In this document: positions 45,965-62,444 of the stretch, one piece after another
Numbering within the stretch: the stretch's first letter is position 1
Layout: every line of letters begins with the position of its first letter
DNA from: an uncultured Nitrospiraceae bacterium
GTDB taxonomy: Bacteria; Nitrospirota; Thermodesulfovibrionia; Thermodesulfovibrionales; Dissulfurispiraceae
Reading direction: 5' to 3'
Assembly: GCA_963705105.1 (NCBI GenBank)
Contig: CAVPIW010000002.1
Span: 1-62,444 of the forward strand
Length of the DNA: 62,444 nucleotides
Made by a program: the position numbers and the translations under genes
The notes under the pieces: generated by a model
Told to the model about the DNA's origin: nothing
Databases searched by the model: none
The model's input: only the letters and a program-made list of their open reading frames with translations

Positions 45965-45965
45965 C

Positions 45966-46724: not shown

Positions 46725-46727
46725 CCG

Positions 46728-47513
46728 ATGAGCATCAATAGAAGGGAATTCATAAAATTGGCGGGTTTCTCGACGATCCTCGGCATCGGAGGCACGGCGG
46801 GTCTGTTCGAGCTCCATCATCCCGCGGAGGCACTGCAGCAGCTGCAGCACCAGAAGGACCCGAACGCCCTGACGGCAAAACGGTGGGCCATGGTGATCGA
46901 TACGCGGAAGTTCAGGACCGACGAGGACTACAAGCGTTGCACCGATGCCTGCCACAAGGTTCACAATGTGCCGGACATAGGGAATCCGAAGGAAGAGATC
47001 AAGTGGATCTGGAAGGAGACCTTTGAGCACGCCTTCCCGGGACAGGAGCACCAGTACTTCGCCGAGGACCTTAAGCACAAGCCCTTCCTCGTCCTCTGCA
47101 ACCACTGCGACAATCCCCCCTGCGTCCGGGTGTGCCCGACGAAGGCGACCTTCAAGAGGCCTGACGGCATTGTCGTCATGGATCCGCACCGGTGCATCGG
47201 TTGCCGGTTCTGCATGGCCGGCTGTCCTTTCGGGGCGAGGAGCTTCAACTTCAAGGACCCCCGGCGCTTTGTCAAGCAGATCAACCCGGAATTTCCGGCA
47301 CGAACGAAGGGTGTCGTCGAGAAATGCACCTTCTGCCACGAGCGTCTTGCCAAGGGTCTCAGACCCGCCTGCGTCGAGGCTTCCAACGGTGCGATCCTTT
47401 TCGGCGACCTGAAGGACGAGAACTCTGAGGTCAGGAAGGCGCTGAACGAGAACTACAGCATCCGCCGGAAGTCAGAGATAGGGACACAGCCCAGTGTCTT
47501 CTACATACTATAG
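46728..47513 (+). CDS. dsrO: DsrO, Tat-exported Fe-S protein
   Basis: NRREFIK, ACH..HNVP, CNHCDNPPCVRVCP, CIGCRFCMAGCP, KCTFC. Confidence 0.95.
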   Translation: MSINRREFIKLAGFSTILGIGGTAGLFELHHPAEALQQLQHQKDPNALTAKRWAMVIDTRKFRTDEDYKRCTDACHKVHNVPDIGNPKEEIKWIWKETFEHAFPGQEHQYFAEDLKHKPFLVLCNHCDNPPCVRVCPTKATFKRPDGIVVMDPHRCIGCRFCMAGCPFGARSFNFKDPRRFVKQINPEFPARTKGVVEKCTFCHERLAKGLRPACVEASNGAILFGDLKDENSEVRKALNENYSIRRKSEIGTQPSVFYIL

Positions 47514-47525
47514 GAGGAGGCAGCC

Positions 47526-48711
47526 ATGATCGAAAAAGCGCTTACCGGAGACAAGAGATACTGGGGTTTGATCGGCTTCCTGCTCGTCATCATCGGGCTC
47601 GGGCTGCTGAATTACGTGCGGCAGTTCAATGAAGGTCTCGGCATCACAGGGATGAGCAGGGACGTGTCCTGGGGATTCTACATCTCCCAGTTCACGTTCC
47701 TTGTCGGCGTGGCGGCCTCGGCCGTCATGGTCGTCCTGCCCTATTATCTCCACGATTACAAGAAGTTCGGCAGGATAACCATTCTCGGCGAGTTTCTCGC
47801 CATACCATCGGTCATCATGTGTATGCTCTTTATTTTCGTCGATATGGGCCAGCCCCTCCGCGTGCTGAACGTCATGCTTCATCCGACGCCGAATTCGGTC
47901 ATGTTTTACGACATGATCGTTCTCAGCGGCTACCTGATCCTGAACGTCCTGATCGGGTGGACATCCCTTGCGGCGGAGAAGAACGGCGTGCTCGCCGCCC
48001 AAGTGGATCAAGCCCTTAGTGTACCTGTCGATTCCCTGGGCCTTCAGCATCCACACGGTGACGGCCTTCCTCTATGCCGGTCTGCCGGGGAGACACTTCT
48101 GGCTCTCGGCCATCCTGGCCGCCCGCTTTCTCGCCTCGGCTTTTGCCGGCGGCCCTGCCCTGCTCATCATTCTCTGCCTCATCGTGAGAAAACTCTCCAA
48201 GTTCGATCCGGGAAAAGAGCAGATCCAGTCCCTTGCGAAAATCGTAACCTATGCCATGATTGCCAATGTCTTTTTCCTCGGCCTGGAGGTCTTTACGGCC
48301 TTCTACAGCGGCATTCCCGGTCACTCGCACCCCTTCGTGTATCTCTACAAGGGGCTTGAGGGGCATGCCAAGCTCGTTCCCCTCATGTGGATGTCGTCCA
48401 TACTGGCCTTGATTTCACTCGTCCTCCTGATCAATCCTGCGACGAGGAAGAACGAGAGCATCCTGACCTTCGCCTGCATCGCCGTCTTCATCTCGCTCTG
48501 GATCGATAAGGGCTTCGGGCTCATCGTCGGCGGATTCGTGCCGAATCCTTTCGAGCGTGTGACGGAGTACTGGCCCACACTTGCCGAAACGTCCATTACT
48601 CTCGGAGTCTGGGGTATCGGATTCCTGGTCCTGGCGATTCTTTACAAAATCGCGGTCTCGATCAAGGAAGAGACGGCGCCGCCGCCTGAGATGGATACGG
48701 GCGAGCACTGA
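47526..48711 (+). pseudogene. dsrP: dsrP (NrfD family) split by a +1 frameshift near 47991 (real or assembly error)
   Basis: 5' half in ORF 47526..48359 up to EKNGV; 3' half ([25 protein letters not shown]...) in ORF 47968..48711; removing one base joins them. Confidence 0.85.
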
Positions 48712-48735
48712 CCGTCAATCGCTGTCTTGTTATAG

Positions 48736-48770
48736 AAGAGGGCTCACCGGTCAGGTGAGCCCTCTTTTGT
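48736..48770 (+). terminator. Intrinsic terminator of dsrTMKJOP
   Basis: aagagggctcacc[ggtca]ggtgagccctctt followed by ttgtt. Confidence 0.8.
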
Positions 48771-48779
48771 TGATGCGCA

Positions 48780-49245
48780 CTTATTCCCTTGCGTGAAAAG
48801 GGGGGGCAAAGCGCTCTGAAAACAGTGTCAGTGTCACTACCGCTTCCTCCGGGAAGGCAACTATGGTTCAAAGCCTTTCCAATGCGATGATGAGGACCAT
48901 TTTGGCAGATGCGCCGAAAGGCGGGGCAAAGCGCCTCAACGCCTCGCTGATAGCGAGCATGATTTTTTATTATTGGTTGTTGAAGATTTCATCCTCTGTA
49001 TCATCAACAGTTTTGCTTACATACTCTCAGCGGGACGGCAGCGGTTTCGCAGCACCGATGCCTTTCGGCGCTTCACCCCGCCATTCGGTCGGGCGTATGG
49101 GTGTGCATATCGGGGTATTCAGCGCCTGTTGCATGACTGGCTTTTGATATCAACAGACACAGCAAAGGGTGGTCTGGGGACGAATAAGGTATCTCAGCGG
49201 AAAGGCTTCTCACCACATCAGCCTTCCCGCCCGCGTGTTCGTGGC
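48780..49245. mobile_element. MITE-like repeat, copy G (long composite; limits approximate)
   Basis: Reverse complement of copy C; outer modules shared with copies A and E. Confidence 0.75.
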
Positions 49246-49280
49246 CTCGTCTATGGAAATTATGTGAGGAGTGAGGATCT

Positions 49281-49466
49281 ATGTATGTCGTTTCTGTAAA
49301 TATCGAAAAGTGTGACGGGTGCGGGGAGTGCGTGACCATCTGTCCCGAGGGGGTGTTCAGGCTATTTGATGAGAAGGCCGATCCCTTTCAGGCAGAGGAT
49401 TGTGTCTTTTGCGAGAGCTGTCTCGGTGTCTGTCCTGCCGGGGCGATTACGATCAGCGAAATATAG
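49281..49466 (+). CDS. 2x[4Fe-4S] ferredoxin
   Basis: CDGCGECVTICP and CVFCESCLGVCP; GAGGA RBS. Confidence 0.92.
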   Translation: MYVVSVNIEKCDGCGECVTICPEGVFRLFDEKADPFQAEDCVFCESCLGVCPAGAITISEI

Positions 49467-49547
49467 GGACGCCGCCGTCCTGCTGTCGGCGGCGAAAAAA
49501 AGGGGAAGCATCATGGCGACGCTCCCCCCTGTATGGCGATGAAGACT

Positions 49548-49799
49548 TTAGGTCTTTTGGATATAGATTTCCCAGTATCCTTTGTCTTCGAGCTTTACGA
49601 CCTCAATGGCATACCCTTGCTTATCCGCAAACCTCGGGATCGAGTCTTCTGCCGACGCGGGAGCGTCACAGAGGATCTTCAGAACGTCTCCTCCCGCCAA
49701 CTTTTCGAGCTGCTTCTTTGTCAGGACGAGCGGATAGGGACAAACCCTCCCGAGCACATCAAGGATCTCTGTCGGTGCCTGAGACTTCAAATCTGCCAT
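49548..49799 (-). CDS. tusA: TusA-family sulfur carrier
   Basis: LDVLGRVCPYPLV motif. Confidence 0.88.
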   Translation of the reverse strand: MADLKSQAPTEILDVLGRVCPYPLVLTKKQLEKLAGGDVLKILCDAPASAEDSIPRFADKQGYAIEVVKLEDKGYWEIYIQKT

Positions 49800-49825
49800 A
49801 GTCTATAATCCTCCTCTGATGGATT

Positions 49826-50239
49826 TTAAAAGATCTGGAGATGGTGAAGCGATTCCATCTCCTTCTGGATTTCACTGCTGGGAACGATTTTAGCGAGTGT
49901 CTCTCCTCCCAGGGCCTCTGCATCCATAACGATCATGTCCTCGGTCAGGCCGAATCTATCGAGGTCCTCCTTGCAGATCATGACGTTGAGATCGAGGAGT
50001 AAGCAATTCTGAAGGTGCATTTCAATGCTGGTGTCTGCGTAGTTTTTCATCGCCTGCTGGTTCTTGAGGCAGTTGAGCACGCCGTCGCCGACAAAGAAGA
50101 GCGCCGCCTCGACGAGGTCCCCGTCTTCCAGATAGATTTCGACGGTCTGGCTCGCGATCGCGTGGGTCAGGGCCAGTCTGGAAGCCTCCGTCTTATAGGG
50201 GAGTGACCGAACGATAAATCCGAGTTTCGTCGTCGCCAT
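49826..50239 (-). CDS. DsrF/TusC-like sulfur-relay subunit
   Basis: IVRSLPY, LFFVGDGV...LKNQ, ICKEDL...GL. Confidence 0.7.
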   Translation of the reverse strand: MATTKLGFIVRSLPYKTEASRLALTHAIASQTVEIYLEDGDLVEAALFFVGDGVLNCLKNQQAMKNYADTSIEMHLQNCLLLDLNVMICKEDLDRFGLTEDMIVMDAEALGGETLAKIVPSSEIQKEMESLHHLQIF

Positions 50240-50240
50240 A

Positions 50241-50603
50241 TTAATCACCTCCTATGAGGAGCACCCTGTCGGCATCGAAGCAGCTGGCGAGATACCAGTC
50301 CATGCTGTGTCTCTTGCACCCTTCCAGCGTGTCTTCCTTGTGATACCCCCTCGCCTCGGCGCAGGCCTCGCAGGCGGTCATCTGAAATTGCCCCGTCGCC
50401 ATCATGTCCTGGACCGATTTCTGAAGGAATGAATAGTCACGGAAGGATTTCTGCCCCTTTTTGGAGAGCATCGTCGCATTTCCGGACAGCCACATATCGA
50501 CTTTATGCCCTTTCTTGACGGCTGCCTCGGCCAGTTTCACCGAAAAATCAAGGGTGAGCGAACCGACGAGCCCGGAAAAGACACCAATGGTCAACTTTCC
50601 CAT
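50241..50603 (-). CDS. DsrE/TusD-like sulfurtransferase
   Basis: AEAAVKKGHKV..W.SGNA, ACEACAEARG carrying the catalytic-type Cys. Confidence 0.78.
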   Translation of the reverse strand: MGKLTIGVFSGLVGSLTLDFSVKLAEAAVKKGHKVDMWLSGNATMLSKKGQKSFRDYSFLQKSVQDMMATGQFQMTACEACAEARGYHKEDTLEGCKRHSMDWYLASCFDADRVLLIGGD

Positions 50604-50618
50604 ACCTGAGCCTCCTTT

Positions 50619-50915
50619 CTATATCCAGACTACTTTTTCGTATTCGTCGAAAATTACATCCACCAGGTCGTCAAAGGTGACTGACTTCACGCGGCTGTCG
50701 ACCTGATCTGCCACATATCCGCGGGATTCGAGGTCTTCCGCCAGGATATAGAAATTGGCGGACTTGTCGAGCACCGGGCCGGCTTTGCCATTCTCCTTCA
50801 CTGTTGCATGGTACACACCGTTACCGACGAAGATAATGCCGAGTTTCTCGGCAGAGAGCCTGTCAAGAATGTCGGTTCCTGTCCTGTAGTCGCTCAATAA
50901 AACGGCAAGCTTCAT
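50619..50915 (-). CDS. DsrH/TusB-like subunit
   Basis: NGVYHA, YILAEDLESRG, VTFDDLVD; GGAGG RBS. Confidence 0.78.
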   Translation of the reverse strand: MKLAVLLSDYRTGTDILDRLSAEKLGIIFVGNGVYHATVKENGKAGPVLDKSANFYILAEDLESRGYVADQVDSRVKSVTFDDLVDVIFDEYEKVVWI

Positions 50916-51057
50916 AATTCTTCACCTCCTGTTCTATAATTTTTTATAGAAATATAAAAATATCCTTATAAATGAATATTTTTGCGTATGAATTTATACC
51001 AGTTGGAGGCTGTCCTTGTCAATAGAAAAGTATTGGCGAGGAGACGGAGATGAAGAG

Positions 51058-51948
51058 ATGGCTGTGGAGCCGGTGATTCGGGAAATCCGCTTTCAAAAGG
51101 GGCGGCGGGGGAAGCCCCTCGTCGTGTTCGTTCATGGCATGGGAATGGACGTGAAAGTCTGGAGCGATCCTTCGGAGGCTCGCATTCTCGGGGGCAGGTA
51201 TCCCCTGAGTGCTCTCCTGTGCGGTCAGGAGAAGGCTCTGGAGACGTCATTCCACGATCTCTGCGGCAACGGGTATCCTGTGCTGACCTGGAGCCAGTCG
51301 AGGCCTGCAGGCCCGATTCACGCCGCCGTCTCGGAGCTGGCAGAACTCTTAAAGCAATACTCGGAACGCACCGCAGAGGGAATCATCATCATCGGGCATA
51401 GCCGGGGCGGACTCATCGGCAGGAAATTCATCGAACAGTGCGATCTCCCCCTGAGAGGTTTCATCACCATTGCCACCCCCCACCGGGGGACCACCATGGC
51501 GAAATGGGCCTTGTGGCTGGCGCCTCTTGCGGGACTCGTGGACCGCATGATTCCGAGTGTCTATGCCGGGGAGGCGATTACGGCGTTCCGGAGGGTCCTC
51601 CGGTTCTTCCGCAGCGCCGGCCCCCGGGAACTTCTCCCCGGATCACCTTTCCTGAGGGAATTGAGGGATGCGAAGCCTCCGTCATCCCGGTGCGTCAGCT
51701 TCGGCGGAACGAACCCGAATCTGATCACCGTCGGAAATGTTTCACTGCAGGATCTCCTGGAGAAGGTCATTCCTGATCGAGCGCTGCCCGATGAATTGAA
51801 GGCGGGCACGGGTGATAGTCTCGTGTCGAAACAGAGCTCGCGGCTGCACTACGGAGACGAACATCATGATGTCCCGCTGAATCATGCCGCCATTATGTTC
51901 GACAGGCACGTGAGGGATCTCATCGTCAAAGCCGTGGATTCGATGTAG
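51058..51948 (+). CDS. Alpha/beta-hydrolase (lipase/PGAP1-like)
   Basis: VFVHGMG, IGHSRGG nucleophile elbow, TIATPH.G, GDSLV, NH. Confidence 0.85.
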   Translation: MAVEPVIREIRFQKGRRGKPLVVFVHGMGMDVKVWSDPSEARILGGRYPLSALLCGQEKALETSFHDLCGNGYPVLTWSQSRPAGPIHAAVSELAELLKQYSERTAEGIIIIGHSRGGLIGRKFIEQCDLPLRGFITIATPHRGTTMAKWALWLAPLAGLVDRMIPSVYAGEAITAFRRVLRFFRSAGPRELLPGSPFLRELRDAKPPSSRCVSFGGTNPNLITVGNVSLQDLLEKVIPDRALPDELKAGTGDSLVSKQSSRLHYGDEHHDVPLNHAAIMFDRHVRDLIVKAVDSM

Positions 51949-52031
51949 ACCACGGATAGTGTGAGTGTCAGTGTGAGTGAAAGGAATTGCCGGTTTGAAG
52001 TGACAGTGAGATGCTCCGCGGTGAATCTCTA

Positions 52032-52244
52032 CCTTGTCGTTGAATAGAAAGGCGTGGCGAAGCGCCTAAAAGCCTTGCTGAAGGCGACGATACGCCTCGT
52101 CAGGTTTGTGTTTCAGGATTCTAATCTTTGTGTGATCGACCATTGGCTTGAAGGGTTGTCTTCTGTGAGGGTTACGGTGTCGCCGCAGCAAGGTTTTCGG
52201 CTCATACACCCCGCCTTTCCGGGGAGTGTATTGCAACGATAAGG
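52032..52244. mobile_element. 213-bp MITE, TCTA target duplication
   Basis: tcta|ccttgtcgttgaa...tgcaacgataagg|tcta; same length as and colinear with 24364-24576. Confidence 0.85.
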
Positions 52245-52299
52245 TCTACATGCAGTATCATCTAGTTGCATTATTTTGGTCAGCGGTGTTCTTTCCCGA

Positions 52300-53689
52300 C
52301 TATCGGCTGCCGGCTGTCAGCAGGAGGTAGAGCAGGTCATCGATCTCGTCCAGCAGCTTCTTGAAGGCGCCTCCGTAGCTCTTTGATTCCGAAAAGAGAG
52401 CGGACCGCAACTGCCTTATCTCCTCATCGTCGCACTTTTCGTAAGTTATATGTCCGTTCTGGAGGGCAAGCCGCTCCAGAACGAGGAGCCTTTGCGCCTG
52501 CGCAGAGAAGGGAAGGAGGAGTGCCCGAACGCTGTCAAGCCGCAGAGCAAGGTTCATGCTGTTTCGCAGCTCGGTGCGGCGTCCCCGCTCCCCCTGGCCG
52601 GTGACTCTGTTTGTGACGTCCATGTTATTCAGGATGCGGGCGATCTCCCTCACAAGGATGAAAAGGGTGCAGTATTCGAGCCCCCTGATCCCCCTTCGCC
52701 ACTGGAGCAGCATCGGATTTCTCCAGAACCAGAGAAAGTTCCGCACGCCGAGGTCGATTATTTCCGTCGCAGCCCCTTCGATGTCTCTGATCGCCGCCGT
52801 GATACCGTCCGAAAGTCCTCCGGAATCACCTTGATCAGCAGTCTCCTCAGTGCGAAGCGGAAACGACCCCGATTCCGGGTGATGCTCCGCCGGGGGAATT
52901 CCAAGATAGTTCCAGATGTTTCGGAGAACAGCTGATCCCGCAACATCTCCGGGGGTGTCGAAATGGACGAGGGACAGCAGAACGGCGCCTTTGCCGTATT
53001 TCCCCTCGACGACAACGGGATCGCCGGACAGGCGCTGCGGATCGAGCCTGATCTGATAGAGGTTTTCCAGGTCAGCCCAGCTGCCGTGCGCATTGACATC
53101 GCCGACGTTCAGATCGGAGCTGAAGGCATCGGGAAGGGCGGAACGGTATGAGGCGAGTATCCTGATTGTCTCATCGTGCAGGACGAACTGAGAGGGCCAC
53201 CAGACGTAAAATGGGGGTGATAGATCGTCTTTGAGCGACGGTATGCTGAGGCTTTTCGGGAGTGTCTCATGGAGAGTCGATGACGGTGCATTTTCGGGTA
53301 TCAATCCCTGCCAGACAGGATGATCAAACAGATTGAGATGGACTCTCCCGCTAAAACTGGGCACCCTCCTCTTTGTCGGCTTTCTCCCGATGGAGAGAAG
53401 ACCGATCCCGTCGAGGGTCGCCAGGCCTGCGCCCCCGCAGAAGCCCAGGTAATTCCCTCCCTCCTCGACAAACGTCCTGAGTGCCTCACCCCCCTCCTTG
53501 CCGAGTCTCCTGATCTTGTTCGAGGCCCATCCCCCGGGGACGAAGATCGTGTCGTAGGAAGAGAGACATCCTTTTCTGATGTCTTCGGACCGGATGAGAT
53601 CGAAGGGGAGGCCATTCGCAGACAAAGCCCTGTATGCCATCAGATCCCCAGAGGAAGGACTCGTCCCACAAAAGAGCCGCCTTTTTCAT
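52300..53689 (-). CDS. BPL-N / class I glutamine-amidotransferase-like protein (frameshift near 53645)
   Basis: VPGGWA, FVEEGGNYLGFCGGAG; the N-terminus MKKAALLWDESFLWG lies in ORF 53486..53689 and joins LMAYRAL if one base is removed. Confidence 0.7.
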
Positions 53690-53770
53690 GGCATCATAGT
53701 GCTGTCACCACATAGTATAGAGAACGAGTAACCCGTGAATTTTTCAGGGGCCTCACGGTAAGAAATGTGT

Positions 53771-53890
53771 CCTAATCTCCGCAACAGGACCTCCGGGAAA
53801 GGCGGGGCGAGCATTGCAACGATAAGGTAAGCAATCATGCTCGCTATCAGCGAGGCTTTGGGGTGCTTTGCCCCGCCTTTCAGTACAACC
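53771..53890. mobile_element. Truncated MITE-like remnants
   Basis: gaaaggcggggc, tgcaacgataagg and catgctcgctatcagcgagg modules. Confidence 0.6.
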
Positions 53891-53901
53891 ACAATGTACC
53901 G

Positions 53902-55805
53902 CTATTCACCGCCGACCCTGTATCCGCGGGGTGTCACCATCCACCCTTTCCATACAAAGGTCTTTGAGTTGCCGACAAGGACCGTCGTCTGCATGTCGAT
54001 CTCATGGTCGAGCATCTGCCCGAGGTCCGTCACGACGACTTTTCATCCGTCCTCATGGCGGCCCTGACGATTCCCACAGGAGTTTCCGGGCTTCTGTAGC
54101 CGAGGAGGATTTCCCGTGCCCGCGAAATGTGATCCCGTCTCCCCTTGCTCCGCGGGTTATAGAGAACGATGACGAAGTCAGCCGCCGCCGCCGCGGAAAG
54201 CCTCTTTTCAATCAGGTCCCACGGTGTCAGCCTGTCCGAGAGGCTGACGGAGGCGAAGTCGTGCATGAGAGGGGCGCCGAGCCGGGATGCGCAGGCATTG
54301 AGCGCCGAGATCCCGGGAATGACTTCAACCTCAACGTGTCCCCGGTCGCGCGATTCCTTTTCGGAGGCATCACTCCGCACATGCTGACGCTCCGCTCCCC
54401 ATCCTGTCTCCCGAAGGAGTTCGAAGATCAGTCCGGCCATGGCATAAATACCGGGGTCTCCTCCGCTTACCATGGCGACTTTTTTCCCTGTCCGGGCGAT
54501 TTCGACAGCCTTTCTGCATCGCTCCACTTCGCGGGTCATGCCTGTCGAGACGATTTCCTTCCCGGTCAGCAGGTCCCGGATCAGTTCAAGATAGGGGCCG
54601 TAACCGACAATGACGTCGGACTCCTGAAGGACGTCCCGGGCATAGGGCGTGATGTGTTCGGTCCTTCCAGGTCCCGTTCCGACAATCGAGAGTCTGCCCT
54701 GCCCGCCAGTCTCCTGCCCTTCACCGATGTTCATCGCGACTGCAGGCACGGTTACACTCCCCGCTTCCTGCTCCGGCAGAGGGGCGACGGGACCGGGGGT
54801 GTCACCGCCGTCACCGGCTATTTCGGCGACCGCAACGGTGACGTTTCCCTCCTTCCGCTTTGGGACGAGCAGACGTCCGCTCCGTGAACCGAGGATCGCC
54901 GACGGCTCGGCGACCGCTTTCGCTCCCGTTGCCTTCAGGGCCGCCGGAGACGGGCTCACACCCTGTACACCGTTCAGTTCGGCGGCCGAGAAAGCTCGTA
55001 TATCAAAGCCGTGGCTTTCTGCAAACGCGACGAGGCCGGGTTCCGAGGCCTTCCTGTCCAGCGTTGCGATAGTGCGGACCGACGAAAAAGAGAGTCCCTT
55101 GTCGCAAAGGACTTTTCTGACGACCGATTCGATCTCATCGCGGGACGTGCCGCTGTTACAGCCGATGCCGAGGACCAGGTTTACGGGCCTCAGGATGAGG
55201 CGCCGGCGGTCATCGGGCTTCTGCTCAAGGATCCTGTTCGAGATGACCATGTCGGCTTCGGCAGGGTTTTTCACGGGCAAAAAAGCTGCCGGCAAAGGCC
55301 CGGCGGCGCCGTTCTCCGGAAAGACATTCAGGGAGCCCGAGTCGAGCAATTGTGTTGCAATGCGAGGAAGGCTGTCCCAGTTCTCGATGACGAGCCCGCT
55401 GTCTGCGGCCCAGAGATCGATGGACGGCATGTCGTTCACGTCTGATGCCGTCGTGATGACGGCTGTCCCGCGGAGAAAACGGGCGATTGAGGCCGCGAGT
55501 TCATTGGCGCCGCCCAGATGGCCGCTCAGAAGACTGATCGCGTGTCTCCCTGCCTCGTCGATGACGACCACGGCAGGATCACGTTTCTTGTCCTCCAACA
55601 GCGGCGCGATGGATCGAACGGCGATGCCCGATGCCATGATGAAAATGAGTGCCTTCGACGTTTTCCAAACGCCGGGGACGATACCGGCCTTATAACGGAG
55701 GACCCTCGCGTGAGGAAAAAGGCGGGTCAGCCTGTCGGCGACAAGCCGGCCCTTCTGCGTTATATACAGGATGGTCGTGCCATCGATTGCCGTCGTCCGT
55801 TTCAT
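53902..55805 (-). CDS. cobJ: CbiG-CbiH(CobJ) fusion: cobalt-precorrin-5A hydrolase plus precorrin-3B C17-methyltransferase (frameshift near 54042)
   Basis: CbiG motifs DPAVVVID..G..ISLLSGHLGGAN, VITTASD, GIGC, VAEP; CbiH motifs VGTGPG, VSGGDPGIYAM, LGAPLMHDF, SLSD.LTPW, LYNPRS; the tail IDMQTTVLVGNSKT...MVTPRGY continues in a shifted frame to TAG at 53902. Confidence 0.85.
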
Positions 55806-55814
55806 GGTTTTCTC

Positions 55815-57779
55815 CTATGCATCGAGCACGTCCCTGATTTTTCTGAGAAGGGTATCGGGCGAAATGGGTTTTGAAAGGTAGTACATGGAGCCTTCGGTTA
55901 TCCCCTTCTTCTCGATGATATCGGCGGCATATCCGCTCACGAAGATCGCCCGGATATCGGGGCGGATTTTACGGATCTCCTCGAATGCTTCCTTGCCGTT
56001 TTTTTTCGGCATGACCACATCGAGGATGAGCAGGCGGATCGCCTTCGCGTGTTCCAGAAATTTCGATACCGCATCCTCGCCGTCTCTGGCTTCGACGACC
56101 TTGTAGCCGTATTTCTGGAGGACATCTCTCGTGAGACACCGCACATCCTCATCGTCCTCTGCAACGAGGACCGTTTCGGTTCCCCCTGATGCCTGTTCCT
56201 GATGGAGATGGTCCTCTTCTTCGATGTCCTTATCGATGATCGGGAAAAAGAGCCTGAAGGTCGTCCCCTTTCCAGGTTCGCTCGAAACGTCGACGGTCCC
56301 GCCGTGTTGCTGCATGATGCCATAGACGATCGAGAGGCCGAGCCCTGTCCCTTTGCCGACTTCCTTTGTCGTAAAGTAGGGGTCGAAGATCCTCTCTCTA
56401 ATCTTTTCGTCTATGCCGACGCCCGTATCCGAAACGGTGACGACGGCCTGCGGCCGCTGTTTACCGCCGTCATCGGATGCTTCAACGCCGACGCGCACCG
56501 CATACGTCGTGATGCTCAGTTTCCCGCCTTTCGGCATCGCATCCCGCGCGTTCGTCACGAGGTTCATCAGCACCTGCTCGATCTGACCGGTGTCTGCCAG
56601 GACGATCAAAGCGTCGTCGCATCGTGTGACCTCGAATTCGATATCTTCACCTATGAGCCTGTCGAGGAACTTCTCGATATTCCTGATGATCTCATTGAGG
56701 TTCGCAGGTCTGAGGTCGATGATCTGCTTTCTGCTGAAGGTCAGGAGGCTCTGGGTCAGGTTCGCGGCCCTCGATCCCGAGGCGAGGATGAGATCGACAT
56801 AGCGTTTCAGTGGATCATCAGCGCTCATCCTGCCCGCCAGGAGACTGCCGTATCCGATGATGGTCGTCAGGATGTTGTTGAAGTCGTGCGCAATGCCCCC
56901 CGCAAGGGTCCCGATGGCCTCCATTTTCTGTGCATGCCTAAGCTGATCTTCGAGCTGCGCCTTTTCGGACTCCTTCTTCTTGAGAGATTCGACCATGCTG
57001 TTAAAGGCCCGTGCGAGGTTGCCGATTTCGTCCTGCGTCTGAACGGATACCGTTTCGACGGAAGCGCCCCGTTCGATCGCCTTCACTCCCTCCGTCAGAG
57101 ATGTAAGAGGCCTCGTAATCCGCCGCGCGACGAGATAGGTGAGAAGAGACCCGAGGATGAGAAAGGACGCCGCTATAAGGATGCTCTCGAACAGCAGTGC
57201 GTTTAGCTGATTTTTCAGTCGTTTCTTGTCAAGAATGATGCACACAAATCCAATGACCCGCTCCTGTTCGGGGATAAGCGACTCCTCAAAGAAGAGATCG
57301 CTTTCCGGGGAGAAACTCGAACGGGTAATTACGGGCGACCAGAACTCGATTATGTCACCCGAGTCATGGGACGTAATCTCCCTGGTCCGACTGAGCAGCT
57401 CAAACATCTGTTTTCGCCGATCACCTTCCCCGTCGTCATGTGTGATACCTTCCTTCGCCCGTTTTGCCAGCAACTTCCCTTCGGCGGTGTAAAGCGATAC
57501 GAATATGACTTCTTCCTGCTGCAGCATTCCTTCGGTGGAGTCTCTGAGGAGACTCTCGTTTTCCGCGAAGACACCAAGGCGTGCACTATGAGCGAAGAGC
57601 CGGGCCAGGACAACGCCCTTGTTGCGCAGATCCTCGGAGAGGGTCTGGCTCTGGTGCCTGATGAAAAAGATGGTAAAAGAAGCGGAGATGATCAGAACGA
57701 GGAGCGAGAATTCAAGGAACACCTTGACCTTGAAGTTGCGCCCGAGAAAGAGGAAAAGCCGGTTCAGGAGCGCCGTCAT
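55815..57779 (-). CDS. Membrane hybrid sensor histidine kinase (periplasmic sensor, HAMP, HisKA, HATPase, receiver)
   Basis: Two TMs, DEIGNLARAFN, GGIAHDFNNIL, NARDAM, DTGVGI, GTGLGL, VAEDD...LDVVMP...KP. Confidence 0.95.
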   Translation of the reverse strand: MTALLNRLFLFLGRNFKVKVFLEFSLLVLIISASFTIFFIRHQSQTLSEDLRNKGVVLARLFAHSARLGVFAENESLLRDSTEGMLQQEEVIFVSLYTAEGKLLAKRAKEGITHDDGEGDRRKQMFELLSRTREITSHDSGDIIEFWSPVITRSSFSPESDLFFEESLIPEQERVIGFVCIILDKKRLKNQLNALLFESILIAASFLILGSLLTYLVARRITRPLTSLTEGVKAIERGASVETVSVQTQDEIGNLARAFNSMVESLKKKESEKAQLEDQLRHAQKMEAIGTLAGGIAHDFNNILTTIIGYGSLLAGRMSADDPLKRYVDLILASGSRAANLTQSLLTFSRKQIIDLRPANLNEIIRNIEKFLDRLIGEDIEFEVTRCDDALIVLADTGQIEQVLMNLVTNARDAMPKGGKLSITTYAVRVGVEASDDGGKQRPQAVVTVSDTGVGIDEKIRERIFDPYFTTKEVGKGTGLGLSIVYGIMQQHGGTVDVSSEPGKGTTFRLFFPIIDKDIEEEDHLHQEQASGGTETVLVAEDDEDVRCLTRDVLQKYGYKVVEARDGEDAVSKFLEHAKAIRLLILDVVMPKKNGKEAFEEIRKIRPDIRAIFVSGYAADIIEKKGITEGSMYYLSKPISPDTLLRKIRDVLDA

Positions 57780-58669
57780 TTGATGATCCTCATATTCGAA
57801 TTGGAGGTTTCGTCAATGACTATCCCCAGCTTTTTGGCAACCTTCTGGTTGACCGACAGGATCGCTTTGCGGGGATCGACATTGCGTATGTTTTTCGCAC
57901 TCGTGCCGGCAAGGATCTTTTTCGCAATGTCGGAGACTTGCCTGCCGATGTCATGGGGGTCAATGCCGACAGACAAAAGGGCGCCCATCTCTACATATTT
58001 TTCCGAGAATGTGAGGATCGGCACCCTGTTCTCCACGGAGAAGAGCAGCAGGGACTCCGTCGTCTCAGTTGTCACCACAAGGGAGTCCGGTATCATCCAG
58101 AAGACATCGATCTTCCCTTTCAAAGTGAGGAGAGCGGAGGGGACTTCCTTGGGGCTCTGAATCTCCTTCGTGAGCAGCTTGATGCCTGTTTCCGCCGCCG
58201 CGCTCTGGGCCTTCTTCACAAGGGCTGCCGTTTTCCCCGGGTTGAAGAGAATCCCCACGCGCTTCGCTTCCGGGAGGATCTTCTGGAGAGACTGGAACTG
58301 TTTTTCGGGCGCTATATCCATGCTCACGCCGGCTATATTGTCTTCGCCGCCAACGACCGATTGCGGGTTTGCCACCATGAGATAGACAATGGGGATGTCC
58401 CTGATTCGCTTTGTTTTCATCAGGGCGTCCATGCCGATGGCGAGGATAAGGTCAGGCCGTCTCTGCCGGATCTGGCTGACGATCTCTTCGGCGACCATCT
58501 CGGACGCCACGAATTCTATGATCCTGCAACTGCATCCGGCCCGGAAGCCTTTGAGAGCATCCTCGTAGGGCTTCACGGGAATGCTCTTGACGGCTACGAT
58601 GGTCTGTTCAGCGGCTGCGAGAGCGGCGGAGAGCAGGAGTGTGACGAGTATGACGAATGTCCTTATCAT
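57776..58669 (-). CDS. Periplasmic ABC-type substrate-binding-fold protein paired with the kinase
   Basis: Signal peptide, PDLILAIG, IPIVY.MV..P, KRVGILFNP, WMIPD, V..GAL; ATGA overlap with the kinase start; no permease or ATPase nearby. Confidence 0.85.
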   Translation of the reverse strand: MIRTFVILVTLLLSAALAAAEQTIVAVKSIPVKPYEDALKGFRAGCSCRIIEFVASEMVAEEIVSQIRQRRPDLILAIGMDALMKTKRIRDIPIVYLMVANPQSVVGGEDNIAGVSMDIAPEKQFQSLQKILPEAKRVGILFNPGKTAALVKKAQSAAAETGIKLLTKEIQSPKEVPSALLTLKGKIDVFWMIPDSLVVTTETTESLLLFSVENRVPILTFSEKYVEMGALLSVGIDPHDIGRQVSDIAKKILAGTSAKNIRNVDPRKAILSVNQKVAKKLGIVIDETSNSNMRIIK

Positions 58670-58761
58670 GCTTTTCGTGTAGGCAGAGAGGCTATTAACC
58701 TTGAAGAAAAGTGTAAAATCGTTTAGTATGATATATCGTTAAAAATTGTAAACTATTTACT

Positions 58762-60660
58762 ATGTCCATGTATAGGTCTCTTTTCATACGATGTCTTTTT
58801 GTGTTTCCCGTTCTCCTCTGTGCCCTCGCCCTCCCGCAAAGGGCAACGGCCCAGACAGAGGAAGAGATGGAGATGCTCCAGCTCTATTTCAGGGAGGATG
58901 AACTCGTCGTCACGGCGACGCGCTCCCCGAAACCGATCTCGCAGGCCTCCGAGACGATCACGGTCGTCACGGCGAAGGAGATCGAGATGATGAACGCCCA
59001 TACGCTGACGGATGTGCTGAACACGGTACCGGGCGTCCAGATCGAGATCCGGGGCGGGCCGGGAAGCCCTGCGGACGCTCACATCCAGGGCTCCGAATCG
59101 CGTCATATTCTCGTGATGATCGACGGTGTGCCCCAGAACAACCTGTCGGACAATAGAGCAGACATCAGCTCGATCCCCATCCAGAACATCGAGCGGATCG
59201 AGATCATCAAGGGGCCCGTCTCGTCGTCCTGGGGATCTTCCCTGGGCGGCATCATCAACGTCATTACAAAGGGCCCGAACCAGTCGAGGGGAATCGGCGG
59301 GACCCTCTCAGCCTCCTACGGAGAGAGGAACACCGGCGACTTCAGGGCCGAGCTGTCCGGGACGAAAGGACCCCTTGGCTATTATCTCTTTGCAGGCAAC
59401 CTCACGACGAACGGTTTCAACCCGAACTCTGATTATTACGCAAACAATATTTATGGGAAAATACGTCTGGACATCACGGACCGTCTCAGCTCGACCGTGA
59501 CGTTCGGATACAGCCAGGGGAACAGGGGTCTAGGGGAATTTCCGGAAATAGGCATATCCTCCAGGAACGACTTCGAGTACCTTTTTTCTTCACTTTTACT
59601 CAACTATGCGTTTAATGACGATGCAGACGTCACGCTCTCCCTATGGATGTCGCGGAAGCACATTGACTTCTTGGATAATCCCGTGGACAAGACCGAAATC
59701 CCCGCAAGTAGGCTCTTCGGCGATTCACAGCACGGGGGCGACCTGCGGTTCAACTGGAGACGGGGGATGCACACCGTCGTTGTGGGCGCAGAATTCAACG
59801 ACGGTGAGCTCAAGTCGAGCAATATTACCAGCGGCAGGCAGGAACTGGATACGTGGGCGGTCTTTGCGAACGACACGATCGTCGTTGACAGGTTCTCCTT
59901 CACGCCCGGCATAAGGTACGACGACACAAGCACGAACGGGGATTTCCTGAGCCCCAGCCTTGGCATCACTTACAAGATCGACGACAAGAACCTCCTCCGT
60001 GGGTACATCGGCCGGGGTTTCAGCATCCCTCCCCTGTCTGCGACTTTCGGGGTTGACAACTTCTTCAGACCTGCGGATAACCTCAAAGTCGAGAAGGTCA
60101 TGTCCTACAAGCTCGGGGTCGAATCGATCGCACTGAAATACCTCTGGCTGCGCTCGACCCTATTTCTTCATGACGTGTCCGACGCCATCGCCCTGGAGAA
60201 TGGCACCGATACGGATACCGGGGCGCCTGTCGTTAAAACGGTAAATAAGGACAAAGTGAGGAGGCAGGGAGTCGAAATCGAGCTGAAGACCATTCCTGTC
60301 TATCACACCTCCCTCTCGGCGGGATTCACCTATCTCGACGCGACAGACAGAGAGACGGGAGAACGTTTAAAAGACACCGCACCTTACACATACGACATCG
60401 GCATTCAGTACGACCATAACAACCTCAAAGCGCTGCTGACAGGTCATTTCATATGGTGGAATGCGATAGCCGAAAGGAAGGGAAAATACAATGCCTTCGT
60501 CTGGGATTTCAACGTCTCGAAGAGGTTCGCCCTGTCCGCTGAAAGGTCCCTCGATCTCTTTTTCTCCATACACAACATATTCGACAGCTCCCAGTATCTG
60601 GACGTCCTCTTTAAAAACCCGGGAAGATGGATCGAGGGAGGTGTAAGGTTCAGTTTTTGA
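58762..60660 (+). CDS. TonB-dependent outer-membrane receptor
   Basis: Signal peptide, ELVVTATR TonB-box region, plug ILVMIDGVP...IERIEIIKGP.SS.WG...GGIINVITK, C-terminal PGR...GVRFSF. Confidence 0.93.
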   Translation: MSMYRSLFIRCLFVFPVLLCALALPQRATAQTEEEMEMLQLYFREDELVVTATRSPKPISQASETITVVTAKEIEMMNAHTLTDVLNTVPGVQIEIRGGPGSPADAHIQGSESRHILVMIDGVPQNNLSDNRADISSIPIQNIERIEIIKGPVSSSWGSSLGGIINVITKGPNQSRGIGGTLSASYGERNTGDFRAELSGTKGPLGYYLFAGNLTTNGFNPNSDYYANNIYGKIRLDITDRLSSTVTFGYSQGNRGLGEFPEIGISSRNDFEYLFSSLLLNYAFNDDADVTLSLWMSRKHIDFLDNPVDKTEIPASRLFGDSQHGGDLRFNWRRGMHTVVVGAEFNDGELKSSNITSGRQELDTWAVFANDTIVVDRFSFTPGIRYDDTSTNGDFLSPSLGITYKIDDKNLLRGYIGRGFSIPPLSATFGVDNFFRPADNLKVEKVMSYKLGVESIALKYLWLRSTLFLHDVSDAIALENGTDTDTGAPVVKTVNKDKVRRQGVEIELKTIPVYHTSLSAGFTYLDATDRETGERLKDTAPYTYDIGIQYDHNNLKALLTGHFIWWNAIAERKGKYNAFVWDFNVSKRFALSAERSLDLFFSIHNIFDSSQYLDVLFKNPGRWIEGGVRFSF

Positions 60661-60824
60661 TGCTGCTGACCGATGCTCTCAATGTCTGCCGTCAAAGGAA
60701 AGGATCCCGCGATTGTGAGGAAAATCACGATGATCTAAAGTTACCGGCAATTCTCACGAAAAAAATACTAAAGATTCAGGGCTCCAAAATCAAGAAAACC
60801 GAGAATCAGCGTGAGGAGGAAAAG

Positions 60825-60947
60825 ATGAAGACAGAGAGGATACCGGAGATGAAAACCAGTGAGAAGATCGTCGTTCTGGATGCAGGCAGGGAAGGCTCGT
60901 CATGGATGTCCTGCTGCTGGGGAGCGTTTGCTTTTTACAGAAGATAG
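60825..60947 (+). CDS. RiPP precursor peptide 1 (40 aa)
   Basis: GAGGAGG RBS; MKTERIPEMKTSEKIVVLDAGREGSSWMSCCWGAFAFYRR; upstream of the radical SAM/SPASM gene. Confidence 0.85.
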   Translation: MKTERIPEMKTSEKIVVLDAGREGSSWMSCCWGAFAFYRR

Positions 60948-61017
60948 GCGCGGAAAGACATTTCTTTGGCTGCCATGAGTTGTGTTGAGACATGTTAATC
61001 AGCGTGAGGAGGAAAAG

Positions 61018-61140
61018 ATGAAGACAGAGAGGATACCGGAGATGAAAACGAATGAGAAGATCGTCGTTCTCGATGCAGGCAGGGAAGGCTCGTCATGGAT
61101 GTCCTGCTGCTGGGGGGCGTTTGCGTTTTACAGGAGATAA
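61018..61140 (+). CDS. RiPP precursor peptide 2 (40 aa)
   Basis: MKTERIPEMKTNEKIVVLDAGREGSSWMSCCWGAFAFYRR; one amino-acid difference from copy 1; below the ORF-track size cut-off. Confidence 0.85.
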   Translation: MKTERIPEMKTNEKIVVLDAGREGSSWMSCCWGAFAFYRR

Positions 61141-61174
61141 ATCGCTAAACGACATTTCTCTCTGCTATAATACC

Positions 61175-61207
61175 AGAAAGGGGAGTTAAGCTCCCCTTTC
61201 TTTTTTT
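61175..61207 (+). terminator. Intrinsic terminator between the peptide genes and the maturase
   Basis: gaaaggggag[ttaag]ctcccctttc followed by ttttttt and then the ATG. Confidence 0.8.
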
Positions 61208-62444
61208 ATGATACTCTCGAATTTTTCAAAGATCTTTCCCTGTGAGGGAAAACCTGGTTATCAGCTCCTCTACTCGACGAAGAGGGCATCGTCCCTGCTC
61301 GTCCATGATTCAGTCATACAGTCCCTGCAGGAAGGACGCATCGCCGGCGATGAACAGCAGCTCCTCGAGCATCTCGGGTTTCTCGTCCGGAGCATCGAAG
61401 AGGAGGTACGGGAGATTCTCAGTATCATGGACAGCATGAACAGGACCGCCCGCCTGTTCAGCGCCATGGTCGTGCTGAATCTCGACTGCAATCTCGCCTG
61501 CACCTACTGCTATGAAGGGGCGATGAAAGGGCGGCACTTCATGTCCGACGAGACGGCAGACGCCCTCATCGGGTTCCTCGAAAGGGAGCACATCGAACAG
61601 GGAAGGAGCATCCACCTCGATTTTTACGGTGGTGAGCCGTTGCTCAGCCAGAGACTCATTGCCGCGATCTCGGGGAGACTGAAGACGTCGGCGGAGCGCC
61701 GGGGACTTTCCTGCTCCTTCAATCTCATAACGAACGGCACCCTCCTGACCAGGAAGGCCGTCGAGAGCATGCTTCCCCTTGGATTGAAGGGCGCCAAGAT
61801 CACCCTCGACGGTCCCAGGGATGTTCATGACGAGCTGCGTCCTTTTAAATCCGGGGCCGGCAGTTATGACCTCATTGTCAGGAATGTCAGGGAGACCTGC
61901 GATCTCATCGAGATTCAGGTCGGCGGCAATTACAGCAGGGAGACCTATGAGAGACTTCCCGATCTTCTCGGTCAGCTCATTGCCGGGGGCATAAAGCCCG
62001 CTGATATCTCGATGGTCAAGTTCACGCCGATCCTCAAAGTGAGCAGCGAGTTCGCAACACCCGAATCAATGGGGGGGTGCATCACGATCGATGAGCCCTG
62101 GCTCATTGAGGCAAGCATCTTTCTCAGGGAGGAGATCCTCAAGAGGGGCTTTACGACGCAGAAGGTACAGCCGTCAATCTGTATGGTCGAAATGGAAAAC
62201 GACATCGTCGTCAATCACGACGGTGCGCTCTACAAGTGCCCGGCCTTTCTCGGACTGAAGGATTTCGAAGCCGGAAACTTGCAGACAGGGATCAAAGGCT
62301 ATGGTGAGTCTCATAACCTCGGTTATTGGAAAAAAGAAGAATGCCTGACCTGTTCGTACCTCCCTCTCTGCTTCGGCGGGTGCAGGTACATGAAATTCCT
62401 CAGGGACGGACGGGTGGATGACGTAGACTGCAGGAAGGACTATC
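61208..62444 (+). CDS. Radical SAM/SPASM peptide maturase (geopeptide-maturase-like), 3' end outside the window
   Basis: Open frame from ATG 61208: LNLDCNLACTYCYE (CxxxCxxC), FYGGEPLL, TNGTLL, ITLDG; SPASM CMVE...LYKCP...CLTCSYLPLCFGGCRY...DC. Confidence 0.92.
   Translation, partial: MILSNFSKIFPCEGKPGYQLLYSTKRASSLLVHDSVIQSLQEGRIAGDEQQLLEHLGFLVRSIEEEVREILSIMDSMNRTARLFSAMVVLNLDCNLACTYCYEGAMKGRHFMSDETADALIGFLEREHIEQGRSIHLDFYGGEPLLSQRLIAAISGRLKTSAERRGLSCSFNLITNGTLLTRKAVESMLPLGLKGAKITLDGPRDVHDELRPFKSGAGSYDLIVRNVRETCDLIEIQVGGNYSRETYERLPDLLGQLIAGGIKPADISMVKFTPILKVSSEFATPESMGGCITIDEPWLIEASIFLREEILKRGFTTQKVQPSICMVEMENDIVVNHDGALYKCPAFLGLKDFEAGNLQTGIKGYGESHNLGYWKKEECLTCSYLPLCFGGCRYMKFLRDGRVDDVDCRKDY

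Follow-up and report, generated by a model that had tools for sequence, protein, structure and literature searches.

The window analysed here is the whole of one contig (C2; GenBank CAVPIW010000002.1, 62,444 nucleotides) of the assembly GCA_963705105.1, from an uncultured Nitrospiraceae bacterium. Its last part, from position 55815 onwards, carries a complete geopeptide module of a divergent subtype, in which the genes for two small precursor peptides and their radical S-adenosylmethionine (SAM) maturase adjoin those of a TonB-dependent receptor and of a sensor kinase with its periplasmic binding protein.

Organization of the locus

The forward strand holds the gene of the TonB-dependent receptor (58762..60660), a protein of 632 residues with a plug and a beta-barrel, followed by two genes for precursor peptides of 40 residues each (60825..60947 and 61018..61140) and by a GC-rich hairpin with a 12-bp stem and a run of seven T (61175..61201). 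The hairpin ends 6 nt before the start codon of the geopeptide radical SAM/SPASM maturase (TIGR04280; 61208..62444), whose gene is truncated by the end of the contig at position 62444, so that 412 residues lie in the window. The reverse strand holds an orphan periplasmic substrate-binding protein of the PF04392 family (297 residues, 57776..58669; 125.8 bits against a cut-off of 25.9) and a hybrid sensor histidine kinase (654 residues, 55815..57779) in which Pfam recognizes sCache_4, HAMP, HisKA, HATPase_c and receiver domains. The two transcription units are separated by an AT-rich divergent region of 92 bp (58670..58761).

Open reading frame (ORF) lists and domain scans returned every gene named in a first-pass annotation of this DNA at the coordinates that it gave, as well as the 92-bp length of the divergent gap. 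Its claim of translational coupling also holds, as the binding-protein gene and the start of the kinase gene share 4 nt. The interpretation that accompanied these genes fared less evenly: the family assignments, the linkage across genomes and the existence of an exporter candidate found support, but the receptor, binding protein and kinase are not confined to loci with peptide genes (see below).

The maturase and its precursor peptides

From its sequence match, the enzyme is clearly a member of TIGR04280, the geopeptide radical SAM maturase family (593.9 bits against a cut-off of 400, over model positions 1-412 of 428), and it contains the SPASM domain of TIGR04085 (55.7 bits against 27). Its relatives were collected from 401 genomes of the same phylum, 44 of which have a TIGR04280 match over the cut-off; up to 20 kb around all 50 such places outside the window were taken, and their ORFs were searched with the proteins of the window. 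Across 32 maturases, the three cysteines of the radical SAM CX3CX2C motif (C94, C98 and C101) are invariant, as are seven in the SPASM region (C325, C344, C379, C382, C388, C392 and C408). The closest named maturases belong to metagenome-assembled Nitrospirota/Nitrospirae genomes (52% and 50% identity).

Among solved structures, CteB, the thioether-forming SCIFF maturase, is the best match of this enzyme both in sequence (5wgg/5why; E 1.5e-20, identity of about 21%) and in fold (5why/5wgg; Foldseek E 6.8e-22, TM 0.67, over 433 columns that include the N-terminal domain); anSME, TigE, SuiB and ChlB come next. The AlphaFold model has a mean pLDDT of 90.1, and its residues 1-80 (pLDDT of about 90) form three strands and then helices; no PqqD-type Pfam match was found in the maturase at E up to 0.01. 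Both enzymes have in common a radical SAM core and a SPASM domain, and the N-terminal domain of the maturase may, as in CteB, be one that recognizes peptides. The models of PapB and related NCBIfam families also match the maturase (E 1e-40 to 1e-47), far below their cut-offs. The substrate differs, however, from those of CteB and of the PapB-type ranthipeptide maturases, since it has one adjacent cysteine pair instead of spaced cysteine repeats. Given that CteB is the best match in both sequence and fold, our best guess by analogy, and only a guess, is that thioethers would be formed at this pair.

Both precursors have a leader-like KIVVLDAG stretch, a Cys-Cys pair and then WGAFAFYRR, and they differ from each other by S12N only. 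Their genes, which end 67 and 260 nt upstream of the maturase start and are each preceded by GAGGAGG a few bases before the ATG, lie within a 143-nt tandem duplication with 96% identity (60804-60946 and 60997-61139). The coding copies have accumulated five synonymous changes and one non-synonymous change (S12N), and their stop codons differ (TAG and TAA). Of the 51 loci, the window included, 45 have a gene for a peptide of this Cys-Cys type, with its own ribosome-binding site, upstream of the maturase; of the six remaining loci, three have at most 41 nt of upstream contig and the others are L062, L082 and L084. In an alignment of 32 peptides, with the consensus MxxRIxVLxKG...CCxGAxxP, the Cys-Cys pair is invariant (32/32) and G21, after the hydrophobic stretch, is kept in at least 90%. 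Because of this recurrence, of the invariant pair and of the excess of synonymous changes, we consider the precursor peptides to be real genes.

The assignment of these peptides to a family is less straightforward than that of the enzyme. The first-pass annotation likened both partners to the geopeptide families, which is correct for the maturase, but the precursors score 19.8 and 19.7 bits with TIGR04229 (E of about 5e-4), for which the cut-off is 30; the match aligns peptide residues 15-35 with model positions 1-22. By sequence they are, consequently, geopeptide-like and fall below the curated cut-off, and we do not file them as equivalogs. In 11 loci (L044, L047, L048, L051, L057, L063, L075, L077, L078, L083 and L090), the short leader is replaced by a lysine-rich one of 45-90 residues, which in most of them is made of (KKKAT)-like repeats and resembles histone-like tails, and the Cys-Cys end is kept.

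The hairpin between the second peptide gene and the maturase has a predicted energy of -22.3 kcal/mol (z -4.24), and none of 200 shuffled sequences was as stable. Of 45 loci, 37 have a hairpin of -15 kcal/mol or lower with a T-rich tail behind their final peptide gene, in comparison with 38 of 270 random 260-nt windows drawn from the same loci. The stem in the window also holds the sole Shine-Dalgarno-like stretch upstream of the maturase. From its sequence, this element looks like a terminator or attenuator, and its position between precursor and maturase would yield more precursor than enzyme transcript. Many of the post-peptide stems (L044-L068 and others) share a common sequence, GGGAGAGC...GCTCTCCC, and those of the subtype found in the window have AAGGGGAG...CTCCCCTT; one arm of the stem is Shine-Dalgarno-like. 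Beyond termination, these hairpins may also control translation of the maturase or stability of the transcript. Among public data, one DNA run includes this stretch with 99% identity and may be where it originated. Those from an RNA-library run contain four contigs that are 90-99% alike to parts of the receptor and maturase genes only; none covers the peptide genes, and assembled contigs of this kind cannot reveal transcription or 3′ ends.

Conservation of the module

The survey of gene neighbourhoods suggested in the first-pass annotation reveals a strong linkage of the receptor, binding protein and kinase to the maturase. The receptor is present in 44 of the 50 maturase loci outside the window and adjoins the maturase in 44 of the 45 that can be assessed; five of the six misses have less than 500 nt of upstream contig, which leaves L082 as the sole true one. 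A PF04392 binding protein lies nearby in 43 of the 50 loci. It is absent from L042, L050, L070, L074, L079, L081 and L082; in L042, L070 and L074, the locus is truncated on one side by the end of the contig. In 40 of the 50 loci the binding protein is directly followed by a sensor similar to the N-terminal 270 residues of the kinase in the window (sCache_4/HAMP). Three binding proteins have no detected sensor: those of L047 and L089 lie at a contig edge, and that of L043 is followed by nfeD and a SPFH-family gene.

These genes have been arranged in several ways. In 37 loci the receptor, peptide, maturase, binding protein and kinase follow each other on a single strand, and in six the receptor gene is preceded by those of the binding protein and kinase. 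Five of these six have the divergent layout of the window (L041, L055, L064, L086 and L087). In the sixth, L084, the receptor, binding protein and kinase together point away from the maturase, and in the named Desulfuromonadales and Geotalea records (L116, L117, L119 and L122) the kinase, binding protein and receptor likewise face away from it. Overall, three gene orders keep the set together, and named records of Nitrospirota, Desulfuromonadales, Geotalea and Desulfobulbia, that is, of the Nitrospirota and Desulfobacterota, also contain it. Where the set is split (L050, L079 and L081), the receptor remains with the peptide and the maturase, which fits the ligand of the receptor being their product. 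With such synteny counts, the arrangement is far more than chance.

What surrounds the module is more variable. The Pfam-scanned flanks of ten loci contain no conserved peptidase and no cobalamin gene, and include fmt/def, ATP synthase genes and infB. The relatives also keep the sensor domain and change the transmitter, which may be a hybrid HisKA kinase, a HisKA kinase with an NtrC-type activator, or a PAS-HisKA_3 kinase with a LuxR-type regulator. An NtrC-type regulator directly follows the kinase in seven loci, four of them verified with Pfam and three recognized by a match to the receiver domain together with their size and position. Among these seven, six have a sigma-54-like -24/-12 site with 10 of the 11 consensus bases after the regulator gene (L060 5178-5193, L062 4907-4922, L077 14808-14823, L078 5133-5148, L083 5012-5027 and L090 14671-14686), at a distance of 129-210 nt in five loci and of 448 nt in L062. 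Sites of that quality number only 17 across all 51 loci. They precede a receiver-only gene and, in L090, also a kinase-like gene; judging from these sites, a second signalling tier would be the output of the module in those six relatives. Additionally, the peptide gene of L043 and L089 is preceded, at a distance of about 80 nt, by perfect sigma-54 sites.

The receptor, the binding protein and the kinase

The receptor has a signal peptide, a PF07715 plug (88.3 bits) and a PF00593 barrel (126.1 bits) of the 22-strand type, and lacks an N-terminal signalling extension of the anti-sigma type. Its ELVVTAT stretch, as read from the sequence, would be a TonB-box-like motif. Every named receptor type in NCBIfam scores far below its cut-off, and the best are BtuB types (157 bits against 599.7 for TIGR01779, and 144 against 836 for PRK10641). 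The closest receptor belongs to L124, from a Thermodesulfovibrionia genome (E 2e-222). Judging from these closest named relatives and those of the maturase, the host is probably a member of an anaerobic Nitrospirota lineage.

The binding protein has a Sec-type signal peptide, as read from its sequence, and a CxC motif formed by C46 and C48, whose codons occupy positions 58526-58534. It does not reach the TrpX equivalog (83.2 bits against 390), and its nearest solved chains are 3lkv, 6hni and 3lft. The ligands of solved PF04392 proteins are the free amino acids Trp, Tyr or Phe (PMC10443332, Table 1; PMC6816091). The first-pass annotation saw no ABC permease or ATPase in the window, which is true for the families searched: none of the 39 PF00005 and none of the 6 PF02653 matches of the genome lies on C2 (other permease families were not searched). 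Elsewhere in the genome, at C8:2250-6351, a third PF04392 match, a weak one, precedes two genes each for PF02653 permeases and for ABC ATPases; that set forms an ordinary ABC transporter, unlike the two kinase-coupled PF04392 copies.

A cysteine at the position of C48 is found in 40 of the 43 peptide-linked binding proteins with a residue there, and the full CxC motif in 31 of the 43. Nine peptide-linked proteins have C48 alone and a second cysteine at the end of a lipobox-like signal peptide, which is probably the lipidated residue, as its sequence context suggests. C48 itself may contact the cysteine pair of the peptide, a metal or the kinase.

In the kinase, two membrane spans, read from the sequence, flank the periplasmic sCache_4 domain, and no response regulator gene adjoins it in the window. 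The kinase does not belong to the LuxQ or TorS equivalogs (122.2 bits against 1200 and 130.5 against 676.5, respectively). In the tree of the sensor domain, as in that of the binding protein, the window falls closest to L055, L064 and L041. A co-fold of the mature binding protein (alignment of 42) with the 40-residue precursor (alignment of 32) scored 0.02, against a mark of 0.32, a result that weighs neither way.

A candidate exporter on the adjoining contig

The first-pass annotation advised looking for an exporter beyond the window, and a candidate lies directly past the contig end. The first 66 bases of contig C16 encode, in frame, 22 residues that complete the maturase as in the C-termini of its relatives, with a stop codon, and the C2/C16 junction falls between residues 38 and 39 of the 60-residue tails of relatives used as queries. 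From the reading frame and the synteny, we infer that both contigs are joined; a DNA contig of a second public run also extends 448 nt beyond the end of the window. The maturase stop is overlapped by an ORF of 196 residues (C16:66-656) that matches only the first half of the major facilitator superfamily (MFS) domain MFS_1; there is no room for a second half, as the convergent queC gene starts 5 nt later.

Homologues of this half-size MFS protein, with 185-194 residues, directly follow the maturase in L041, L055, L071, L074 and L082. At E up to 1e-25 it occurs in 7 of the 401 genomes, and in all seven it lies beside a match to the geopeptide maturase, within 50 nt in the L-series loci and within 250 nt in genome G330. 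L082, which has this gene, lacks a receptor, binding protein or kinase within 9 kb. The nearest named families are efflux pumps, among them MdtG, Tet, Bcr/CflA and the myxochelin exporter MxcK, all matched far below their cut-offs and in the N-terminal half only. On the basis of its sequence and position, the protein can be proposed as a candidate exporter.

Control regions

The 92-bp divergent region is presumably the shared control region of both units. It contains weak sigma-70-like matches only, and an 11-nt direct repeat, AAAA(G/T)TGTAAA, at 58707-58717 and 58742-58752. We discarded this repeat as an operator, as it is not conserved in the control regions of six relatives. The sigma-54 consensus gives 13 matches in the window, with 20.5 expected, and none near the cluster. 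A Fur-box-like pattern is absent from the cluster, including the divergent region, and an Rfam search of positions 45000-62444 at E up to 1 returned no cobalamin riboswitch or any other.

Genes neighbouring the module

The kinase gene is adjoined by a fused cbiG-cbiH gene (54030-55805, reverse strand), which codes for cobalt-precorrin 5A hydrolase and precorrin-3B C17-methyltransferase; this adjacency was not seen in the ten loci of relatives that were scanned. Further away lie a 446-residue protein with a weak BPL_N match only and no NCBIfam family (52300-53640, reverse strand) and a 310-residue protein resembling alpha/beta-hydrolases (51016-51948, forward strand), neither of which recurs beside the module in relatives. 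A run of small genes on the reverse strand (49548-50915) codes for putative sulfur-relay proteins resembling TusA and the DsrE/F/H type.

A proposed mechanism and its alternatives

The simplest scheme for this gene set is that the peptide is made, exported, re-imported, bound and converted into a signal, so that the cell senses its own product; we favour it with slightly less than even confidence. As the linkage is tight and has been repeatedly rearranged, whatever the peptide and maturase genes produce would be the substance on which the receptor, binding protein and kinase act. In this scheme, the N-terminal domain of the maturase, which resembles a RiPP (ribosomally synthesized and post-translationally modified peptide) recognition element, would hold the abundant precursor by the IVVLD.G stretch near the N-terminus of the latter. 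The maturase would then cross-link the invariant Cys-Cys region, most likely through thioether bonds, as in its nearest solved relative, CteB. The product would be exported from the cytoplasm, for which a dimer of the half-size MFS protein is the probable route in this case, accumulate outside the cell and be pulled back into the periplasm by the receptor. Since there is no ABC partner on the contig and the receptor has no anti-sigma-type extension, the route left is that of the periplasmic binding protein and the kinase: the former would take the product and dock on the periplasmic Cache domain of the latter, switching the phosphorelay.

This scheme has to be reconciled with relatives of the binding protein that have no peptide beside them. 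Its homologues (E up to 1e-20) are present in 167 of the 401 genomes, in contrast to 44 with the maturase. In 20 peptide-less loci, hand-picked from the binding-protein list as the top scorers among genomes that lack a maturase match and a spread of weaker ones, the sensor directly follows the binding protein in all 20, a related receptor is found in 12 and a maturase match in none; the nine that were translated (the closest relatives and the copy from the genome of the window, L098) contain no Cys-Cys peptide ORF. L098 is a second set, on contig C9 at about 119.3-125.0 kb (L098 6746-12414), in which a receptor (E 3e-122 to that of the window), a PF04392 binding protein without the cysteine signature, a sCache/HAMP kinase and a receiver-kinase gene lie on one strand. 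The outputs of the peptide-less loci are mostly histidine kinases. In L108 (10462-13059), the sensor ends in PAS-GGDEF-EAL instead of a kinase, and the wider module can therefore feed cyclic-di-GMP signalling.

A quick IQ-TREE tree of 64 binding proteins groups the 43 peptide-linked sequences with nine bare ones (SH-aLRT 93; among the latter, L093 reaches the edge of its contig and cannot be assessed), and leaves outside 11 bare sequences and the long-branched L071. The peptide-linked label changes seven times on this tree (at least four by the starred branches), in comparison with 17.3 times on average when shuffled, and the peptide-linked trio is therefore a subclade of a wider, uncharacterized sensing module. 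From their placement in the tree, members of the subclade appear to have lost, or never had, the peptide genes several times. Consequently, what the first-pass annotation named as grounds for abandoning its reading, a trio that occurs mostly without peptide genes, describes the wide family (167 genomes against 44) but not the subclade, in which 43 of 52 members are peptide-linked.

Such a distribution also suits a different explanation, which we judge unlikely although it is the strongest of the alternatives: the trio would sense a foreign compound, as its many relatives without peptide genes must, and merely control how much of the modified peptide is made, the latter being the output (for instance an antimicrobial or an intracellular effector) and never re-imported. 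The excess of binding-protein homologues over maturases, the pairing with a sensor in all 20 peptide-less loci (12 of them with a receptor), the bare copy in the same genome, the peptide-less members nested in the peptide-linked clade and the free aromatic amino acids bound by the solved family members are all what it would lead one to expect. It accounts poorly, by contrast, for the receptor gene being the most tightly linked partner of the peptide (44/45) and for its staying with the peptide and maturase, without the sensor, in the three split loci. The cysteine at the C48 position also speaks against it: present in eight of nine nested bare proteins, it is absent from all 11 distant ones, so that the ligand or partner of the latter is probably not the same. 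The efflux-type half-size MFS protein tied to the maturase fits any exported product and does not discriminate in this respect.

Alternatively, the Cys-Cys peptide could be a secreted carrier of a metal or cofactor, similar to a chalkophore or siderophore, which the receptor would recover in its loaded form and whose arrival the binding protein and kinase would report, so that the system would serve acquisition instead of signalling. We regard this as somewhat more improbable than the previous alternative. TonB receptors typically import scarce nutrients, methanobactin operons encode a TonB receptor, an exporter and a periplasmic binding protein together with a peptide precursor, and the invariant cysteines of the peptide and the conserved one of the linked binding proteins would be suitable for such a carrier; the nested peptide-less trios could then be pirates of the product of others. 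However, the loci have no conserved inner-membrane importer, reductase or metal-responsive regulator, the control region has no Fur-box-like site, the half-size MFS protein resembles efflux pumps and not importers, and the flanking genes vary from locus to locus with no metal theme. Furthermore, the relatives of the maturase consume cysteine thiols in thioethers, which would remove the metal ligands.

A chance neighbourhood of the RiPP pair and a receptor and binding protein for cobalamin or siderophore uptake, as the BtuB types heading the receptor matches and the fused cbiG-cbiH gene directly upstream (54030-55805) might suggest, is close to refuted, since the BtuB models are far below their cut-offs (157 against 599.7 and 144 against 836 bits), no cobalamin riboswitch was detected in 45000-62444 at E up to 1, the scanned flanks of ten relatives have no cobalamin genes and the linkage of receptor, peptide and maturase stands at 44/45; this possibility, also raised in the first-pass annotation, thus found no support.

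Several observations weigh against re-import and sensing of the peptide by its producer. The precursors score below the curated TIGR04229 cut-off. Regarding export, 44 of the 51 loci (window included) have no exporter gene beside them, no leader peptidase was found among the Pfam-scanned flanking genes of ten loci, and the product would also have to cross the outer membrane on its way out. Moreover, the binding protein and sensor are widespread without peptide genes, with a receptor in 12 of the 20 loci looked at, and the pair can work without a home-made peptide, as nine of the 52 members of the subclade are bare. Finally, the window contains no recognizable regulator, sigma-54 site or operator conserved with relatives, and a feedback loop is therefore not traceable here; where an NtrC-type regulator is accompanied by sigma-54-like sites, as in six relatives, these precede other signalling genes and not the peptide operon.

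Comparison with known systems

The closest described system is the geopeptide one (TIGR04229 and TIGR04280), which NCBIfam/TIGRFAMs files as a hypothetical equivalog defined by comparative genomics. The window shares with it a maturase over the cut-off, the IVVLD.G stretch and Cys-Cys core of the peptide and the position of the latter directly upstream of the enzyme. It differs in the scores of its precursors, below the cut-off, in its divergent layout, two tandem precursors and half-size MFS gene, and in having its nearest named relatives in Nitrospirota and not in Geobacter.

In its presumed way of working, the signalling half resembles LuxP-LuxQ and TorT-TorS, which respond to autoinducer-2 (AI-2) and trimethylamine N-oxide (TMAO), respectively, and in which a periplasmic binding protein signals through a hybrid histidine kinase. 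In all three cases an orphan binding protein lies beside a hybrid kinase with a periplasmic sensor and without an ABC transporter. The binding protein of the window, however, belongs to another family (PF04392), and the set includes a TonB receptor and genes for a candidate ligand. The likeness of the kinase to LuxQ and TorS is one of architecture only.

The methanobactin operons contain a RiPP precursor, the TonB receptor MbnT, the periplasmic binding protein MbnE and an exporter. The likeness lies in a ribosomal peptide whose gene adjoins those of a periplasmic binding protein, of an importer in the outer membrane and, in the subtype of the window, of an efflux-type transporter. By contrast, maturation would here depend on a radical SAM/SPASM enzyme and not on MbnBC, a kinase instead of uptake is the partner of the binding protein, and sigma/anti-sigma genes are absent from the set.

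The Gram-positive agrBDCA and comCDE systems also unite a precursor, a modifying enzyme and a sensor kinase in one locus, with a regulator that, in the geopeptide module, is present in relatives. The host of the window, however, is a diderm, in which a signal would reach the kinase only by way of a TonB-dependent receptor and a binding protein; additionally, there is no dedicated peptidase at the locus, and autoinduction would be conjectural.

Implications

Our searches found no paper on the product or function of geopeptides (subscription journals and the text of the family description lay outside the search) and none on a radical SAM/SPASM RiPP associated with a TonB receptor, a kinase and a binding protein, while for PF04392 and COG2984 they returned general papers only. 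The textbook signals of Gram-negative-type cells are acyl-homoserine lactones and other small molecules, and peptides are seen as a Gram-positive speciality. We tentatively propose, as a plausible but rather doubtful possibility, that a Cys-Cys peptide cross-linked by a radical SAM enzyme serves as a cell-to-cell signal in anaerobic diderms of the Nitrospirota and Desulfobacterota, with TonB-dependent entry and a periplasmic readout. As the module is compact and present in at least one named cultured species, Geotalea toluenoxydans (L122), the question is directly testable.

If this were true, the peptide would enter through a dedicated TonB-dependent receptor and be read by a cysteine-bearing binding protein and a Cache kinase, and those genomes that have retained the receptor, binding protein and kinase of this clade without the peptide would eavesdrop. 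We know of no described circuit in which peptide quorum sensing has such an energy-gated entry at the outer membrane. It would also provide a ligand and a role for a RiPP family that has been catalogued and not studied, for a class of small TonB receptors and for the transporter-less PF04392 proteins paired with Cache kinases (167/401 genomes). Should the loop exist, it would mean peptide signalling in Gram-negative-type anaerobes from sediments and the subsurface.

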